From: Bacteroidota bacterium
GTDB taxonomy: Bacteria; Bacteroidota; Ignavibacteria; UBA10030; UBA6906
Direction: 5' to 3'
Assembly (NCBI GenBank): GCA_049670805.1
Contig: JBATTW010000385.1
Span: forward strand, 18,007 to 82,006
DNA: 64,000 nucleotides
Below the pieces are notes generated by a model that saw only the letters and a list, made by a program, of their open reading frames with translations, ran no database searches and was not told the DNA's origin. The position numbers were made by a program, and so were the translations under genes. This document shows positions 2,227-58,979 of this stretch, in pieces; positions within the stretch are counted from its first letter, which is position 1, and every line of letters begins with the position of its first letter.

Positions 2227-2675
2227 TGTTGTTTCCGTCTGTTGCGAAGATCTTTCGCGAGTTCATGGTCAATACGAAAATACGTCGCCGGTTCTGCGGG
2301 GTGCTGCAGCTGCAGCTCCTTGGCGGCAAATGCACTGATGCGACCGCGGGATGATTTCTTGCTCACTTCAGCGCGCAACACACCGTTTGCATGGGTCAGC
2401 GAGTCATGCCGCACTTCCAACCGGTTGATATCATACGCCAGCCGGTTCACCACGATGATGTTGTTGACGTAGTACACAATGGCAACACCGGCAATAACAA
2501 GAGCGAGCAGGAGACTAAACGTAGACTTTCGTCTTCCGGTGACCTTTTTGTTCGCGCGGGGAAGAAACCCGCCGGTGGCAATGCGTGGGTCACCGCCGTA
2601 CACATACCGGTGTTCCCGGTATGGCTGACGATTCGGTCTGGTCAGCGTTTCCTGGTTCGGCTGTACATCCATCAA
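2223..2675 (-). CDS. ftsL: Cell division protein FtsL
   Basis: 150-aa single-TM coiled-coil protein between rsmH and ftsI. ATGA overlaps with both neighbours. Confidence 0.7.
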   Translation of the reverse strand: MMDVQPNQETLTRPNRQPYREHRYVYGGDPRIATGGFLPRANKKVTGRRKSTFSLLLALVIAGVAIVYYVNNIIVVNRLAYDINRLEVRHDSLTHANGVLRAEVSKKSSRGRISAFAAKELQLQHPAEPATYFRIDHELAKDLRNRRKQQ

Positions 2676-3628
2676 TAGTGGTCCCCGGGTACCCGAAGAC
2701 GTGTAGCTACCCGCATCTTGGCGCTACGCGCCCGTGGATTGCTCCGTATTTCCTCAGCGTCGGGAATGACGGGTTTCCGATGCAGAATCTGCAACGCGGG
2801 CAGCCGCTCCTCATCAGGCACATATACGTGAGGAGAGCGAACAACCCTTGCGGACTCCCTCTTCAAAAAGTTCTTGACTATCCTGTCCTCAAGCGAGTGG
2901 TAGGCAATGACAACCAGCCGCCCCCCGGGTTCGAGCTTTGCCATCGAGTCGAGGAGAACTCTAGAAAGGTTGGCAAGTTCCGCGTTCACCTCTATCCGCA
3001 GCGCCTGAAAGACGCGCGCCAAGGACTTTGTCAAAAACCGCCCACCGACAACTGAGGAAACCGCAGTACACAGCTCTCTACTCGTCAAGAGAGGTCTGCG
3101 CGCGATAATAGCCTTTGTAATCTTCCGGGAGTACCTCTCCTCACCGTACTCACGGATGATCCGCTCGAGAGCATCCTCCGCATATGCATTCACTACATCC
3201 CGGGCCGTCAGGTCTTGCCTGCGATCAAACCGCATGTCCAGCTGGCCGTCCGCCTGGAAGCTGAATCCTTTCTCAGGTCTGTCGATCTGGAACGATGACA
3301 CACCGAGATCGAGCAGTATGCCGCTGACAGCACCGATCCCACGTCCATCAAGCTCTGCGGCCAGGCAACTGGCGTTCGCGTGTACGAAGGAGACAGCCCC
3401 GCCGTATTCTCTCAGACGCTTACGTGCATGATCGATTGCGTCGTCATCCGCATCAAAACATATCAATCGACCCCGTGGAACCAACCGCCTGCAGATTGCC
3501 TCGGCGTGACCACCGCCGCCGACGGTTCCATCCACATAGATCCCGCCGAGATCGGTTAGCAGATAGTCTACCGTCTTTTCGCAGAGAACCGGTTCATGAA
3601 AAGACACAGCTCTCACTCTACAGGACAA
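2672..3628 (-). CDS. rsmH: 16S rRNA (cytosine1402-N4)-methyltransferase RsmH (MraW)
   Basis: 318 aa with SAM-binding GGGGH motif and the typical RsmH N-terminus (HEPVL). Sits in the dcw cluster after mraZ. Confidence 0.9.
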   Translation of the reverse strand: MSCRVRAVSFHEPVLCEKTVDYLLTDLGGIYVDGTVGGGGHAEAICRRLVPRGRLICFDADDDAIDHARKRLREYGGAVSFVHANASCLAAELDGRGIGAVSGILLDLGVSSFQIDRPEKGFSFQADGQLDMRFDRRQDLTARDVVNAYAEDALERIIREYGEERYSRKITKAIIARRPLLTSRELCTAVSSVVGGRFLTKSLARVFQALRIEVNAELANLSRVLLDSMAKLEPGGRLVVIAYHSLEDRIVKNFLKRESARVVRSPHVYVPDEERLPALQILHRKPVIPDAEEIRSNPRARSAKMRVATRLRVPGDHY

Positions 3629-3655: not shown

Positions 3656-4099
3656 CTACTTTTGCAGAACTGTCTGTGCAACGTTTTCGTAGCTTTCAGA
3701 CTGCGACTTCTGGTACTCACGATAGACTGACGGATTCCATACCTCGATCCGCTCGAGGACCCCGAGGATCAGCACCTCGTTCTCGATTCCGGCAAATTGG
3801 AGAAGCTCTTTCGGTATGGTAATGCGGGACTGGCCGTCGAGCTGACACTCTGTGGCCCGCTCAAGCAGGGTGCGCATAAAGAATCTGTGTTTCGGATTGG
3901 TAGTGCTGAGCTCACGGATGGATTGCTCGAGTGTATTCCACTCGTCCAGAGGATAGACAAACAAGCACTGCTCGTAGCCTCTTGTGACAACAAACGTATC
4001 CTTTGCATCCAGCGAGACGTAGCGTCGCAGTCTGGCCGGTATGTTGATTCGACCCTTGTTGTCAACAGAGTATTCGTATGAACCCTTGAAGGAGGACAT
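3656..4099 (-). CDS. mraZ: Transcriptional regulator MraZ
   Basis: 147 aa with duplicated MraZ/UPF0040 halves and N-terminal MSSFKGSYEYSVDNKGRINIPARLR. First gene of the dcw cluster. Confidence 0.9.
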   Translation of the reverse strand: MSSFKGSYEYSVDNKGRINIPARLRRYVSLDAKDTFVVTRGYEQCLFVYPLDEWNTLEQSIRELSTTNPKHRFFMRTLLERATECQLDGQSRITIPKELLQFAGIENEVLILGVLERIEVWNPSVYREYQKSQSESYENVAQTVLQK

Positions 4100-4122
4100 A
4101 TCGGCCTATACGAGCAAATTTC

Positions 4123-4150
4123 TACCCACCAGGTACCCACTTTTACCCAC
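4123..4150 (-). promoter_or_regulatory. Putative MraZ operator: three direct GTGGGTA repeats (TACCCAC on plus) with 10-11 bp spacing, about 24 bp upstream of the mraZ start
   Basis: Plus strand reads tcTACCCACcaggTACCCACttttTACCCAC. MraZ proteins are known to bind direct GTGGG-type repeats at helical periodicity in their own promoter. Confidence 0.55.
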
Positions 4151-4161
4151 TGCGTGAAGTT

Positions 4162-4189
4162 AAGATACGGAATTGGGCTTGAATGTCAA
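4162..4189 (-). promoter_or_regulatory. Candidate sigma70-type promoter for the dcw cluster (TTGACA-16-TATCTT on minus strand), just upstream of the MraZ repeats
   Basis: Reverse complement of 4184-4189 is TTGACA and of 4162-4167 is TATCTT, with a 16-nt spacer. Confidence 0.25.
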
Positions 4190-4258
4190 GTGACACAGGC
4201 GAAAAATAGTCAAAATGAGGGGATTTGGGTTGGGGGGAGATTACAAACCGGGTTGGAC

Positions 4259-7200
4259 TTACCCACCGGCGAGACTGTCAAGCAGTTGGAGAACCTCGAT
4301 GGTCGGGTTCGGTGAGTCTGTGGAGATGGCCCGGGTCACTGTGAGCCGGAGAGACTCACCGTCCTTCTGCAGGCGAGCACCCTGTGCCTTGAGCCCTGGA
4401 ATGGCAGACATGATCTGCTGAAAGCTCTCACCGTCATAGAAATTGGAATCTCCCTCCGGCGGGAATTCCAGCTCCACAGCATTTTCGGCGATGCGCACCT
4501 TCGAGAAGCCGATCCTTGCCGCTTCGATTCTTACCGCAATAGCACCAAAGAGGTTCTCTGCCTCCGCGGGATGTTTTCCAAACCGATCTTTCATTTCTTC
4601 CACGACCTCCGCAAGCTGAACGGAACTCGTCAGGTCATACAGCCGCCGGTAGAGTGTGAGCCGTTCCTGGTCGTTCTCGACATACGATTCCGGAATGTAT
4701 GCATCACAGTCCACATCCACCACTGTCCCCTCGAGCCGTTGTGGACCCGGACGTTCACCACGGAACAGATCCTGAAACTCACCCTGCTTCACCTCCAGCA
4801 CCGCCTCTTCGAGGATCTTCGTGTACGTCTCGAAACCCATGCTCTCGATAAAGCCGCTCTGTTCGCTTCCCAGAAGGTTTCCAGCACCGCGAATTTCCAG
4901 ATCGCGCATGGCAAGATTGAATCCCGAGCCGAGCTCTGTGAATTCCTGCATTGCTCGCAATCGCTGCACTGTTGAATTCGGCATCATGGACACCGGCGGC
5001 GCGAGCAAATAGGCATAGGCCTGCACGTTCGATCTCCCAACCCTCCCACGCAGCTGATACAGTTCCGCCATGCCAAATCGGTCGGCTCTGTTTACGATAA
5101 TGGTATTCACGTTCGGGATATCCAGACCCGATTCAATGATCTTCGTCGCAACCAAAACATCGACCTTCCGTTCCAGAAACTCCACCATAACCTCTTCCAG
5201 GTCTCGCGCACTCATCTGCCCGTGTGCGTACTGGATTCGCACACCTGGAAGGAGGTCCTGTACCCGCTCCGTTATTTCCTCGATGTTCCGTACACGATCG
5301 TGGACAAAATAGACCTGGCCTCCACGGTCAACCTCCCTCACCACCGCCTCTCTAATGAGCTCGTCGTCCCAGCCCCTGATCTCCGTCACAATGGGAAGTC
5401 GATTTCTCGGCGGCGTCCCAATAATTGACAGGTCGCGCGCACCCATAAGGGAAAAATGAAGCGTCCGGGGTATAGGGGTCGCTGTCAGCGCCAGCGTGTC
5501 GACATCGGCCCGCAGCTGTCGTAGCTTCTCCTTCGCAGCAACCCCAAACCGGTGCTCCTCATCAACAATCAGAAGGCCAAGGTTCTTAAAAACCACGTCT
5601 CGTGAGAGGAGCCGATGCGTCCCGATCACAATATCCACCGATCCCGCCTTGAGGCCATCGAGAGTAGCTGCCTGTGCTTTTTTTGTTTTGAACCGGGACA
5701 ACACCTGAACGTTCACACCGTACCGCGAAATCCGGTCAACAAATGTCTTCTGGTGCTGCATCGCCAAGATTGTCGTTGGTACGAGCACGGCTGTTTGTTT
5801 TCCCCCGAGCACAGCCTTGAACGCCGCACGCACAGCCACCTCTGTCTTTCCAAACCCCACATCGCCGCAGATCAGTCTGTCCATGGGGAACGCTTCCTCC
5901 ATGTCTTGCTTGACCTCATGTGTGGCCTTTGCCTGGTCGAACGTGTCCTCGTACATGAAGGATGCCTCCAGCTCTCTCTGCCACAGCGCATCCCCGGGGA
6001 AAACGAAGCCGGGCGACTGCTTCCGTTTCGCGTAGAGCGCAATCAGTTCGCGAGCAATATCTTTGACGCGTTTTTTTGCTCGCGATCTCAGCCGGTTCCA
6101 GTCGGGACTACCCAGTCGCGACAATCTCGGGGTATGACCTTCTTTTGAGGAATATTTTTGCAGCCTGCTAATGTAGTTCAGATTGACATAGAGAGTGTCG
6201 TCTCCCTCGTATCGGACCGTTATTACTTCCTGCTCGACATTATTGACTTTGATCTTCTTCAGCCGCTCGAATCTCCCGATGCCGTACTCCTCGTGAACAA
6301 CGAAGTCACCCCTCCGAAGCTGATGAACATCCCGATCGGTGAAGCCTCTGAACGTCGGTCTTCTCCTCTTACCTCTCCGCTTCAACCGATTGAAGATCTG
6401 GTGTTCGGTGAAAAACGCCAGTCTTCCCTCCGGGATTACAAATCCTTCGTGCAATGTTTCACGGGAGAACTCTAGCCTTTCGAGGTCAACTGCATCATCG
6501 ATCAGCCGCGCGGACCCGGGCTCCATGGTCTCGCCTTCGATCGAGCTCAGCAGTTCCTTGAGCCTCTGCTGTTCCGAAGGGCTGTCACACGAGATAATCA
6601 CCGCATGTTGGTGCCGGAGTAGATCTGCAAGCGCTGCCCGGAGAAGCTTGACGCTGGCATTGAATGCCGGTTGAGGTGCGGAGCGGAAATCTACATCAAC
6701 CCGCGAGCTGCCACCGGTGGGTCGGAAGTGAACCTGTGGAAGCTCGTCAACCCGACGGGCGATCGCCTCACGCGAGATCGTGAGGGAATGTTCTTCTGTA
6801 TATGGATGTCCGGAGACCGTTTGAATTAGCTCCGGCTCCTCCAGAACGACGACTACGGTTCGCCCGGCGTAGTCAAAGAGGGTGGTCTGGCCCGACGATA
6901 GTGGTTCACCTGTTTCAGCATCCGGAAGGAGATCGGCTACAATGGTTGCAGCGGCAAGCTCCCGTATAGATCTCTGCGACAGCACATCGAATTCCCTGAT
7001 AGACTCCAGAAGATCACCAAAGAACTCGAGTCGTACCGGATTCTCACCCGCGAAAGGATATATATCGAGAATACCTCCGCGCTGCGCGTAGTCTCCGTAT
7101 TGTTCAACATAATCTTTCTTCTCAAAGCCCAGCGTCTCCAGCCTCGCGATCAGACGCGAGAAGGGTTCCTCACTCCCCTCCTCCACAGTGAAGAACCTTC

Positions 7201-7606
7201 CCGCAGCGGCAGCCGGAGGAGGTAGCGGAACAAGAAGGGCGCGGGGGTAGGTTACAATCACGGATGTCTGGTGAAGCAGCATTGAGCGGAGTGCCGCGGT
7301 GTCAGCGGTATCCCGCACATTGTCTCCGCCGCCACGCCGGTGGCCGGCGCCAAAGAACTGCACAGCGTCCTTCCCCAGGCACTGAGCACAGTCATCGCGC
7401 CAGCGTTCGGCAGTCTCCCTGTCGCGTGAGACGATAACGAATTGACGCTGGAGCCGCTCCTGGAGGCACGACAGCAGGACAGCAGACAGTGAACCGCTAA
7501 CACCGCCGAGGACGACAGAACTCCCTGCCGTCATTCTCTTTGCACGATCCAGCAGCTGGGTGAATGCTGGGAGCCCTGTTACCGCTTCCTTGAGATGTTC
7601 AATCAT
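4259..7606 (-). CDS. mfd: Transcription-repair coupling factor Mfd
   Basis: 1115 aa with UvrB-homology N-terminus, a CarD/TRCF domain, a superfamily-2 helicase core (GFGKTEVA Walker A, DEEH) and a TRCF C-terminus. Confidence 0.93.
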   Translation of the reverse strand: MIEHLKEAVTGLPAFTQLLDRAKRMTAGSSVVLGGVSGSLSAVLLSCLQERLQRQFVIVSRDRETAERWRDDCAQCLGKDAVQFFGAGHRRGGGDNVRDTADTAALRSMLLHQTSVIVTYPRALLVPLPPPAAAAGRFFTVEEGSEEPFSRLIARLETLGFEKKDYVEQYGDYAQRGGILDIYPFAGENPVRLEFFGDLLESIREFDVLSQRSIRELAAATIVADLLPDAETGEPLSSGQTTLFDYAGRTVVVVLEEPELIQTVSGHPYTEEHSLTISREAIARRVDELPQVHFRPTGGSSRVDVDFRSAPQPAFNASVKLLRAALADLLRHQHAVIISCDSPSEQQRLKELLSSIEGETMEPGSARLIDDAVDLERLEFSRETLHEGFVIPEGRLAFFTEHQIFNRLKRRGKRRRPTFRGFTDRDVHQLRRGDFVVHEEYGIGRFERLKKIKVNNVEQEVITVRYEGDDTLYVNLNYISRLQKYSSKEGHTPRLSRLGSPDWNRLRSRAKKRVKDIARELIALYAKRKQSPGFVFPGDALWQRELEASFMYEDTFDQAKATHEVKQDMEEAFPMDRLICGDVGFGKTEVAVRAAFKAVLGGKQTAVLVPTTILAMQHQKTFVDRISRYGVNVQVLSRFKTKKAQAATLDGLKAGSVDIVIGTHRLLSRDVVFKNLGLLIVDEEHRFGVAAKEKLRQLRADVDTLALTATPIPRTLHFSLMGARDLSIIGTPPRNRLPIVTEIRGWDDELIREAVVREVDRGGQVYFVHDRVRNIEEITERVQDLLPGVRIQYAHGQMSARDLEEVMVEFLERKVDVLVATKIIESGLDIPNVNTIIVNRADRFGMAELYQLRGRVGRSNVQAYAYLLAPPVSMMPNSTVQRLRAMQEFTELGSGFNLAMRDLEIRGAGNLLGSEQSGFIESMGFETYTKILEEAVLEVKQGEFQDLFRGERPGPQRLEGTVVDVDCDAYIPESYVENDQERLTLYRRLYDLTSSVQLAEVVEEMKDRFGKHPAEAENLFGAIAVRIEAARIGFSKVRIAENAVELEFPPEGDSNFYDGESFQQIMSAIPGLKAQGARLQKDGESLRLTVTRAISTDSPNPTIEVLQLLDSLAGG

Positions 7607-54404: not shown

Positions 54405-55898
54405 ATGCAACGTTCGAGCCTGGAAACCGTTTCTCTCTGCAAAGACTATCCTGGCACACGAGCCTTAGACGATGTTTCGATCCGGTTTGACGGTGGCCGG
54501 GTTCATGCCCTCGTAGGAAAGAACGGCGCGGGAAAAAGTACACTTGTAAAGATCTTTGCCGGGGCCATCCCACCCACATCCGGGAGCGTCGCGATCAATG
54601 GCGCTTCCGCGACCTTCTCTTCACCCCGAGATGCACTCCGCCAGGGTATCGTGGCGGTCTATCAGGAACTGAGCCTTGTTCCCGAACTCACCGTGGCTGA
54701 AAACATCCTGCTGGGCCGTATGCCGCATCGGTCCGGGCCGTGGAATTTTGCTATCGACCGGGAAGAGGCATACTCTGCGGCTCAGGCAGCTCTCTCTCGG
54801 CTGGGAGTGGACCTGGATGTGAAGAAGAAAGCCCGTACACTCGGACTCGCGCAGCAACAATTTGTGGAAATCGCCAAGGCGATGTCCTACAAACCGGCGG
54901 TGCTCATGCTGGATGAACCGACATCGGCTCTCTCGCACAAGGAAGCCGAGCACCTATTTGACATCATACGGACACTCGCATCCCAGGGCGTCGTGCTCCT
55001 CTACATTACACATAGACTTCAGGAGATCTACCGGATTGCTGACACGGTATCGGTGCTGCGGGACGGGAAGCTTGTGGGGAGCGTAAGCAAGGCGGATGTT
55101 ACGCCGGAGAATCTGGCCAAAATGATGTTTGGGGACGTAGTCAAAATCTCACGATCGGCAGAAGCACTCCCCGCCCTGGAGCCCCTGTTGAAAGTGGAAC
55201 ACCTCTCCCGGCATGCGGCGTTCAGGGATGTTAGCTTCACGTTGTACAAGGGTGAAGTGCTCGGGATCGCGGGCTTGCTCGGATCAGGCCGTACCGAACT
55301 GCTTCGATCCCTCTTTGGTGCCGACCCTCCTCAAAGGGGCCATCTGATGCTTGATGGTAAACGGATCCAGCCCGAAAACCCTGCAATGATGAAAAGCCTC
55401 GGGGTGGTCCTCACGCCGGAGAACCGAAAAGAGGAAGGTTTGATTCAGATCTTGAGTACCAGGGCAAACATCTGTTTGGCCAGCCTGCAACGCGTGGCAC
55501 GGGGAGGATTTACCACTCGAACACGAGAACGGGTTTGGGCAGGACCGCTGATGCAGACGGTCGGTCTTGTTGCTCGGGACATCGAGGCTCCTGTCTCCTC
55601 CCTGAGTGGGGGGAACCAGCAGAAGGTGGTGGTGGGTAAGTGGGTGGGTACAGAACCTCGTGTCATTCTGATGGACGAGCCGACCCGCGGGATCGATGTC
55701 CAGGCGAAGCGACAGATGTTCGAGATTATCTGGGCTTTGAGCAAGCGAGGAATTAGCTCTCTGGTTGTGTCCAGCGAGCTCGAAGAGCTGCTCGAGGTAT
55801 GTCATCGCATACTGATCATGAAGAAGGGACAAATTGCCTCGGACGTTCTTCCTTCAGAAACATCTCTGGAAAGACTCTTTAGCCTATGTCTCCAATGA
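54405..55898 (+). CDS. Sugar ABC transporter ATP-binding protein, CUT2 family (tandem ABC domains, RbsA-like)
   Basis: 497 aa with two Walker A sites (GKNGAGKST; second degenerate GLLGSGRTEL) and two LSGG signatures. Confidence 0.88.
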   Translation: MQRSSLETVSLCKDYPGTRALDDVSIRFDGGRVHALVGKNGAGKSTLVKIFAGAIPPTSGSVAINGASATFSSPRDALRQGIVAVYQELSLVPELTVAENILLGRMPHRSGPWNFAIDREEAYSAAQAALSRLGVDLDVKKKARTLGLAQQQFVEIAKAMSYKPAVLMLDEPTSALSHKEAEHLFDIIRTLASQGVVLLYITHRLQEIYRIADTVSVLRDGKLVGSVSKADVTPENLAKMMFGDVVKISRSAEALPALEPLLKVEHLSRHAAFRDVSFTLYKGEVLGIAGLLGSGRTELLRSLFGADPPQRGHLMLDGKRIQPENPAMMKSLGVVLTPENRKEEGLIQILSTRANICLASLQRVARGGFTTRTRERVWAGPLMQTVGLVARDIEAPVSSLSGGNQQKVVVGKWVGTEPRVILMDEPTRGIDVQAKRQMFEIIWALSKRGISSLVVSSELEELLEVCHRILIMKKGQIASDVLPSETSLERLFSLCLQ

Positions 55899-57914: not shown

Positions 57915-58979
57915 ATGACACTCGATGCCCTGGGATGGAACCGGTTCTTTGCAGAAGCGTTTCAGCCGTTTGTCGGGGAAGGACATGAGCCCGCGCGTGT
58001 TGCTGTACCACGCAGAAAGCACTTCTTGCTTTACAGTGCAGGGGGTGAGGTCCGAGGCAAAATCACGGGCAGAATGCTCTACCAGGCTGCGGGGCCTGAG
58101 GATCTGCCTGCTGTCGGTGACTGGGTGGTAATCCAGAGATGGCCGGACAGAGAAGAGGTTTCTATCCTGGATCTGCTTCCGCGTAAGAGCGAGTTCGTGA
58201 GGAAGGTTGCAGGAAGAAGAACCGATCAGCAGGTGGTGGCGGCCAACTCGGATATCGTCTTCCTCGTAAGCGCTCTTGATCAGAGACTCACTCTGCGGGG
58301 ATTGGAACGGTATCTCGTTGTGGCTGCGGAGAGTGGAGCAACGCCCGTGGTTCTGTTGAACAAGGCAGATCTCTGTGACGAAGTCGAAGAGATACTCGAG
58401 GAGGTCCGGACGGCAACTCGTGATGTCCCTGTTCATGTTATTAGCGCCAAGCTCGGAGAGGGGATGGAAGCGATACGCTCCTACATGACCGAAGGCGTCA
58501 CCGGCACAATGCTTGGACCCTCCGGCGCAGGAAAGTCAACCATCATCAACACCCTTCTTGGGTCCGATTACCTTCGGACACGGGAAGTGCGTGACGTTGA
58601 TGACCGGGGTCGGCATGTGACGACACAACGCGAACTCGTTGTTCTCCCAGAGGGGGGGCTCCTGATAGACACCCCCGGGATGCGGGAACTCCAGTTGTTT
58701 GCGGGTCAGGAAGGGATAGCGGCAACCTTTGACGACGTTGAGGAGCTGGGGACCCGGTGTCAGTTCCGAGATTGTCAACATGAGGTGGAACCGGGTTGCG
58801 CGGTTCTGAGAGCGATTGCTGAGGGTGGGCTGGACGTGGGACGGTTTGAGAGCTACAAGAAACTGCTTCGTGAGGCGGCGCACCAGAAACGGAAAGTTAG
58901 CAACGTGGACGAGCGAAAGCACAAAGAACACTGGAAAAAGATCACTGCCAAGTACCGGAGAGAGAATCGACAACGGTAA
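57915..58979 (+). CDS. rsgA: Ribosome small-subunit-dependent GTPase A RsgA (EngC/YjeQ)
   Basis: 354 aa with OB-fold N-terminus, circularly permuted GTPase (LLNKADL, GPSGAGKST) and C-terminal zinc knuckle CQFRDCQHEVEPGC. Confidence 0.9.
   Translation: MTLDALGWNRFFAEAFQPFVGEGHEPARVAVPRRKHFLLYSAGGEVRGKITGRMLYQAAGPEDLPAVGDWVVIQRWPDREEVSILDLLPRKSEFVRKVAGRRTDQQVVAANSDIVFLVSALDQRLTLRGLERYLVVAAESGATPVVLLNKADLCDEVEEILEEVRTATRDVPVHVISAKLGEGMEAIRSYMTEGVTGTMLGPSGAGKSTIINTLLGSDYLRTREVRDVDDRGRHVTTQRELVVLPEGGLLIDTPGMRELQLFAGQEGIAATFDDVEELGTRCQFRDCQHEVEPGCAVLRAIAEGGLDVGRFESYKKLLREAAHQKRKVSNVDERKHKEHWKKITAKYRRENRQR

Follow-up and report, generated by a model that had tools for sequence, protein, structure and literature searches.

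What is the function of the short sequence that occurs three times in succession directly upstream of mraZ in the 64,000-nt stretch of DNA analysed here (the window)? On the plus strand, TACCCAC is found at 4123-4129, 4134-4140 and 4144-4150. On the minus strand, which encodes mraZ, the same bases read GTGGGTA-AAA-GTGGGTA-CCTG-GTGGGTA and thus form direct repeats (4150-4144, 4140-4134 and 4129-4123). An initial reading made from the letters of the window (the sequence-only reading) had described a triple GTGGGTA upstream of mraZ and had proposed it as a candidate MraZ operator, and the sequence readout indeed returned three exact copies. Its repeat spacings of 11 and 10 bp, counted start to start, were right; however, the two spacers, both given as N4, are in fact 4 nt (cagg) and 3 nt (ttt) long. 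In the direction of mraZ transcription the period is 10 bp and then 11 bp, amounting to 21 bp over two turns. The array begins 11 nt past the -10 element of a predicted promoter and ends 23 nt short of the mraZ ATG (4099), this last gap (4100-4122) having previously been put at 24 bp.

The frequency of GTGGGTA in the window is unremarkable when taken alone (8 copies versus 3.9 expected), and three of these eight copies fall within 28 bp on one strand. Neither strand of the 64 kb holds another triple of GTGGG, or even of GTGG, with periods of 9-12 bp. In simulated windows (first-order Markov), any GTGGG triple arose in just 3 of 400 cases, and by analytic calculation approximately 1.4e-8 GTGGGTA triples with periods of 10-11 bp are expected per window. 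That the array arose by chance, or by a recent local duplication, and has no function is a general possibility. The array is too short for Tandem Repeats Finder, which did not report it. With roughly 1e-8 heptamer triples expected per window, and with boxes that are kept across 133 related loci while the spacers between them diverge, we consider the probability of such an origin to be negligible. A scan for tRNA genes gave no match, and Rfam gave none in the region at E<=1 and none across the whole window at the gathering threshold. Two further repeat pairs were noted elsewhere in the window. The GTGGGTA pair at 55632 and 55644 on the plus strand (55632-55650), whose copies are 12 bp apart, was dismissed as a coding coincidence, as it lies inside a 497-aa ORF (54405-55898) in a stretch coding for VVGKWVG. 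The only other GTGGG pair with an 11-bp period, GTGGGCTGGACGTGGG at 58825-58840 on the plus strand, is located within the span of an ORF on the same strand (57915-58979).

The gene that follows the repeats (3656-4099, minus strand) encodes a protein with a Pfam MraZ domain (PF02381, E=1.4e-36), matches MraZ entries of the PDB at 3e-19 and is 100% identical to an NCBI protein named MraZ from a 'Bacteroidota bacterium' MAG. It is followed on the same strand by rsmH (2672-3628; Pfam Methyltransf_5, 7e-96), by ftsL (2223-2675), assigned from a Pfam FtsL match (E=4e-4) that, at 20.7 bits, stays under the gathering cut-off of 22.9 bits, and by a gene for an ftsI-type PBP (55-2226; Pfam Transpeptidase, PBP_dimer and PASTA). 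The reading frames of rsmH, ftsL and ftsI abut or overlap, and mraZ is the first gene of this dcw cluster, in agreement with the earlier call of both the gene and the cluster. It would therefore be predicted regulator and first regulated gene at once. Upstream of mraZ lies mfd (4259-7606, minus strand), with its stop codon TAA at 4261-4259. The window MraZ could be aligned with the chains of the Mycoplasma genitalium cryo-EM structure (E=3e-19), which puts K15, R17 and R92 at the positions of K13, R15 and R86. These three residues, together with both DxxxR motifs (D13-R17 and D88-R92), are invariant in an alignment of MraZ proteins of the clade (alignment A1).

A promoter scan of the region upstream of mraZ revealed a -35 hexamer TTGACA (4184-4189, minus strand) and, after a 16-nt spacer, a -10 hexamer TATCTT (4162-4167, minus strand). 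This site (4189-4162) had already been put forward as the promoter candidate. It agrees with the consensus at 10 of 12 positions and is the sole such site between 3900 and 4500, where 0.3 would be expected from shuffled sequence, the assignment being a consensus match only. Taking the usual distance from -10 to +1, transcription would start near A4155, 7 nt past the -10 hexamer on the minus strand, and the mraZ ATG would then be at +57. On this numbering, box 1 (4144-4150), the promoter-proximal GTGGGTA, is predicted to cover +6 to +12; box 2 (4134-4140), 10 bp further on, +16 to +22; and box 3 (4123-4129), another 11 bp on, +27 to +33, all three on the minus strand. The remainder of the short 5' leader, from box 3 to the ATG (4100-4122, minus strand), reads GAAATTTGCTCGTATAGGCCGAT, and its length varies widely among relatives. 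The array thus starts 11 nt past a conserved sigma-70-type -10 and would cover the predicted start region and the early leader, as the sequence-only reading had it.

That reading had also proposed to check whether the repeats are conserved upstream of mraZ in relatives. For this purpose we compared 80 genome loci (MraZ 56-86% identical to that of the window) and 56 metagenome loci (61-99%), of which 53 included the mraZ start. Together with the window, the resulting 133 relatives make up 134 sequences (MraZ 56-99% identical); nearly all of those drawn from the species-level genome collection are MAGs that carry the label Ignavibacteria, Ignavibacteriota or Bacteroidota. An exact 15-nt GTGGG-N5-GTGGG, with a period from box 1 to box 2 of exactly 10 bp, was found no more than 210 nt upstream of mraZ and on its strand in 132 of the 134 sequences. 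The two exceptions are L079, in which the end of the contig cuts box 1, and L078 (Candidatus Chrysopegis kryptomonas, Kryptonia), which carries GTGGT three times. In 473 kb of related genome loci the GTGGG-N5-GTGGG pair occurs 81 times on both strands together, and 80 of these 81 pairs stand on the mraZ strand no more than 200 nt ahead of the gene, against a chance expectation of 0.56 pairs.

In an unanchored MAFFT alignment of the window and 11 close relatives (alignment A2), invariant columns occurred only in CTTGAC, TATCTT, GTGGGTAAAAGTGGG and GTGGGTAGAA, with the GTGGG core of box 1 among them, whereas the -35/-10 spacer, the stretch separating the -10 from box 1 and the spacer between boxes 2 and 3 were all variable. 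In L081, whose MraZ is 99% identical, the spacer between boxes 2 and 3 differs at 3 of 4 positions (CCTG versus ATAG) and all boxes are intact. The spacer past the core of box 1 reads (T/G)AAAA, with 96-100% A at four positions; hence box 2 is preceded by a conserved A-tract and reads AAAAGTGGG. An exact core of box 3, GTGGG placed 11 bp past box 2, was present in 60 of 118 non-redundant sequences. In the more distant relatives it is reduced to G-rich remnants or absent, and approximately half of them keep just two boxes, so that three boxes do not appear to be universally required in the lineage. Among the close relatives of alignment A2, the bases past the core of box 3 (4113-4122, minus strand) are conserved as well, with GTGGGTAGAA invariant and followed by (A/T)T(T/C)(T/G)GC, and the functional third site may therefore exceed the heptamer. 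L078 presents a natural variant of the core: its three GTGGT boxes, AGTGGTAAATTGTGGTGAATTGTGGTAGAA, lie some 30-60 nt upstream of mraZ and keep an exact 10-bp period.

The G-rich character of the repeats suggests a different role, in which they would act as a G-quadruplex, in the non-template DNA or in the RNA of the 5' leader, and not as a protein site. There is a precedent in Staphylococcus aureus, where a G4-forming motif has been reported downstream of PmraZ and its conservation in other bacteria has been claimed, and the leader of the window contains the G-tracts GGG, GGG, GG and GGG. However, a stable intramolecular G-quadruplex takes four or more G-tracts; three GGG runs and one GG would give at best a weak two-tetrad structure. 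Nor would a quadruplex need the invariant GT, the A-tract spacer or the strict 10-bp register, and the reduction to two boxes in about half of the relatives, as well as the missing Rfam match, likewise argue against it. We therefore regard this role as very unlikely.

A set of 79 sequences anchored on the promoter (the window and 78 genome loci) was used to describe the register of the boxes. The -35 is TTGAC[T/A] in 76 of the 79, the spacer between -35 and -10 measures 16 nt in 76, and the -10 is TATCTT or TAAATT in 72. Between the -10 and box 1 lie 10-12 nt in 69 of the 79 sequences, whereas box 1 and the ATG are separated by anything from 38 to 123 nt among relatives. The repeats thus behave as a DNA element at the level of the promoter, locked to the promoter and not to the gene. 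This register bears directly on whether the repeats might work in the mRNA leader, as the target of an RNA-binding regulator or as a processing or stability element that controls translation or decay of mraZ. With a start near 4155, as we infer, the repeats would be transcribed, and a hairpin with a T-run past the repeats in part of the relatives points to control at the level of the leader in part of the clade. Yet it is the distance to the -10 that is held and not the one to the start codon, no Rfam family matches, and experiments in other phyla have defined the same motif as a DNA operator. A role in the leader is hence extremely improbable.

The hairpins themselves were detected, followed by a T-run, directly past the repeats in 17 of 118 relatives, in longer leaders, against 1.7 expected from shuffles (among the loci are L012-L015, L019, L022, L026, L031, L035, L036, L100 and L117). 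The stems differ by locus, for example ATGCCCT/AGGGCAT, GCCC/GGGC or AAGGGG/CCCCTT, and could serve as attenuators or stabilisers. The 23-nt leader of the window contains no terminator-like hairpin with a T-run.

Reportedly, a MraZ operator in the Escherichia coli promoter Pmra (mraZ1p) was described by Eraso and co-workers in 2014. Direct inspection of this promoter in strain MG1655 (NC_000913.3) gave TTGACA-18-TAAACT-7-GTGGGaaattGTGGGgcaaaGTGGG, followed downstream by the ATG. As in the window, where the -10 is a predicted one, three direct GTGGG repeats with a period of about 10 bp are located on the mraZ strand, downstream of the -10, ahead of a mraZ that leads the dcw cluster. In E. coli, both periods are 10 bp and box 1 begins 7 nt past the -10, compared with 10 and 11 bp and a gap of 11 nt in the window, where the repeat unit moreover extends to GTGGGTA. 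The core and the spacing equal those of E. coli Pmra; they also fit the published MraZ box consensus of GTG(G/T) with 6-nt spacers, three boxes being present in most bacteria (PMC12957436). The sequence-only reading had likewise described MraZ as recognising GTGGG-like repeats in its promoter.

More distant systems resemble the window in the same way. In M. genitalium the start site lies inside box 1, binding is cooperative, K13, R15 and R86 contact bases, and consecutive subunits of the opened MraZ ring occupy consecutive boxes in the cryo-EM structure (PMC12957436). GTG(G/T) boxes with 6-nt spacers are shared with the window. Between the two MraZ proteins the relationship is only distant (E=3e-19). 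In M. genitalium there are four boxes in a contiguous series and a start mapped inside box 1, whereas the window has three and a start predicted approximately 5 nt upstream of box 1. The site of Mollicutes MraZ has been described as AAAGTG[T/G] repeats (Fisunov et al. 2016), a unit that box 2 of the window, with AAAA before it, matches. Pmra of Bacillus subtilis contains GTGG[A/T]G three times with a 10-bp period, a triple found nowhere else in that genome, and repression by MraZ needs both the repeats and the two DxxxR motifs (bioRxiv 10.1101/2022.02.09.479790). Both arrays consist of three direct repeats containing GTGG with a 10-bp period; the B. subtilis unit GTGG[A/T]G is separated by 4-nt spacers, the GTGGGTA of the window by spacers of 3-4 nt. 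In Burkholderia cenocepacia, MraZ shifted a promoter-proximal fragment of PmraBc, in which sequence inspection then revealed repeats of 7 nt spaced by 3 nt; they lie downstream of the -10 and overlap the start site, 'as in E. coli' (PMC7761207). The window has likewise 7-nt repeats downstream of the predicted -10 and near the predicted start site, but three instead of four, and a predicted leader of approximately 56 nt instead of 100 nt.

Conservation alone does not name the binder, and the array could in principle be the operator of some DNA-binding protein that is not MraZ. Nevertheless, motif, period, position and linked gene all match MraZ systems that were defined by EMSA, cryo-EM and reporter assays. 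Furthermore, the site adjoins mraZ (80 of the 81 pairs in the 473 kb), and the MraZ encoded there keeps the contact residues. A different binder is hence highly unlikely. We conclude that the three GTGGGTA repeats are very likely the canonical autoregulatory MraZ operator of the mra (dcw) promoter. The candidate operator put forward by the sequence-only reading is thus supported by the linked mraZ, by direct repeats at about one helical turn, by the conserved promoter register and by conservation in relatives, all of it evidence at the sequence level. The arrangement is the one known from E. coli, Bacillus and mycoplasmas. A literature search for MraZ combined with Ignavibacteria, Bacteroidota or Chlorobi returned nothing relevant, and judging from the literature searched the operator is new in this uncultured lineage of Ignavibacteria type.

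By analogy with these systems, MraZ made from the adjoining gene would bind the array as an oligomer, each subunit placing its 'cradle' motif of the SpoVT/AbrB type (K15, R17 and R92) into the major groove at one GTGGG box. Spacings of 10 and 11 bp bring all three boxes to the same side of the helix over two turns, and consecutive subunits could occupy consecutive boxes. Since the boxes start 11 nt past the -10, bound MraZ would cover approximately +6 to +33, where it could occlude RNA polymerase or block open-complex formation or promoter escape. The outcome would be negative autoregulation of mraZ, rsmH, ftsL and ftsI and of the part of the cluster beyond the edge of the window. MraZ probably acts as a repressor here, a sign suggested by the position of the boxes and by E. 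coli, B. subtilis and M. genitalium. In Mycoplasma gallisepticum, higher FtsZ levels accompanied MraZ overexpression (Fisunov et al. 2016); repression is therefore not guaranteed for every MraZ, and activation is a possibility.

The analysis extends the MraZ box code, which places GTGGG downstream of the -10 in a 10-bp register, to an uncultured lineage of Ignavibacteria/Bacteroidota. The same core pentamer in E. coli and in a distant phylum supports an ancient and mechanistically uniform autoregulation of the dcw cluster by MraZ. In practical terms, promoter and operator can now be annotated with confidence in these MAGs, and the 133 natural operator variants, which have two or three boxes and differing spacers, could guide binding studies.

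Besides the array, a candidate distal MraZ-like box, GTGGGTAA, was found at 4259-4266 on the minus strand, 116 bp upstream of box 1, where it overlaps the mfd stop (GGT GGG TAA). A GTGGG on the same strand occurs at -140 to -110 from box 1 in 27 of 118 non-redundant sequences, compared with 2.3 expected from the background at -400 to -141. The positions peak at -127 and -117, with GTGGG[T/G]AA as the consensus of the longer site. The enrichment is specific to GTGGG when compared with permutations of the pentamer, and the base composition of the region is unbiased. The flanks of the distal box cannot be aligned between loci; it stands before, on or after the mfd stop depending on the locus and occurs also where mfd is not the neighbour. 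Its position thus tracks the promoter and not the Mfd reading frame. Offsets of roughly 117 or 127 bp correspond to 11 or 12 helical turns. A Rayleigh analysis of the phasing gave R of approximately 0.48 near 10.25-10.5 bp, a value reached by 0.5% of uniform nulls; given the breadth of the peak and the phylogenetic relatedness of the loci, this phasing is only suggestive. The distal box is seen in further loci as well, for example L081, L015, L020, L024, L070, L091 and L106.

The distal box may, speculatively and judging from its sequence and placement, be an auxiliary MraZ site. Tentatively, the operator of the clade could then be bipartite, with three boxes at +6 to +33 and a single distal GTGGG[T/G]AA approximately 117 or 127 bp upstream, although we consider this rather doubtful. 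In such an arrangement, free subunits of the same MraZ ring might capture the distal box and close a repression loop around the promoter. Alternatively, the distal box might act as a roadblock that insulates Pmra from read-through out of mfd. A distal box at approximately 117-127 bp upstream, present in part of the clade, has no counterpart in the E. coli region inspected, and the MraZ literature examined makes no mention of distal auxiliary boxes. Of the elements described here, this candidate alone might bring anything new to the MraZ model.

The region between the distal box and the promoter contains a C-rich, G-poor tract, CTCCCCCCAACCCAAATCCCCTC (4217-4239, minus strand), located about 30-50 nt upstream of the -35. 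The matching zone in relatives (-100 to -70 from box 1) holds CCCAC in 39 of 118 non-redundant sequences, mostly as CCCCACC and clustered at about -97, -86 and -76. An interpretation of these CCCAC as inverted MraZ boxes was not supported, since the zone is 37% C and every permutation of the pentamer shows a similar enrichment. Rejected as a general explanation was the idea that the distal GTGGG and an upstream CCCAC form the arms of an mfd terminator hairpin: the two co-occur in 4 loci compared with 8.9 expected, and the folds are inconsistent between loci. In the window, a weak terminator-like hairpin can be drawn at the end of mfd (4249-4265, minus strand), TGGGT-AAGTCCA-ACCCG followed by GTTTGTAATC, of which the distal GTGGG box provides the 5' arm. 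L081 can pair the arm of its distal box with a different 3' arm, but without a T-run. Among the 80 related genome loci (L001-L080), mfd is located directly upstream of mraZ and on the same strand in 43, and among them the final residues of Mfd are hypervariable, both in sequence and in length.
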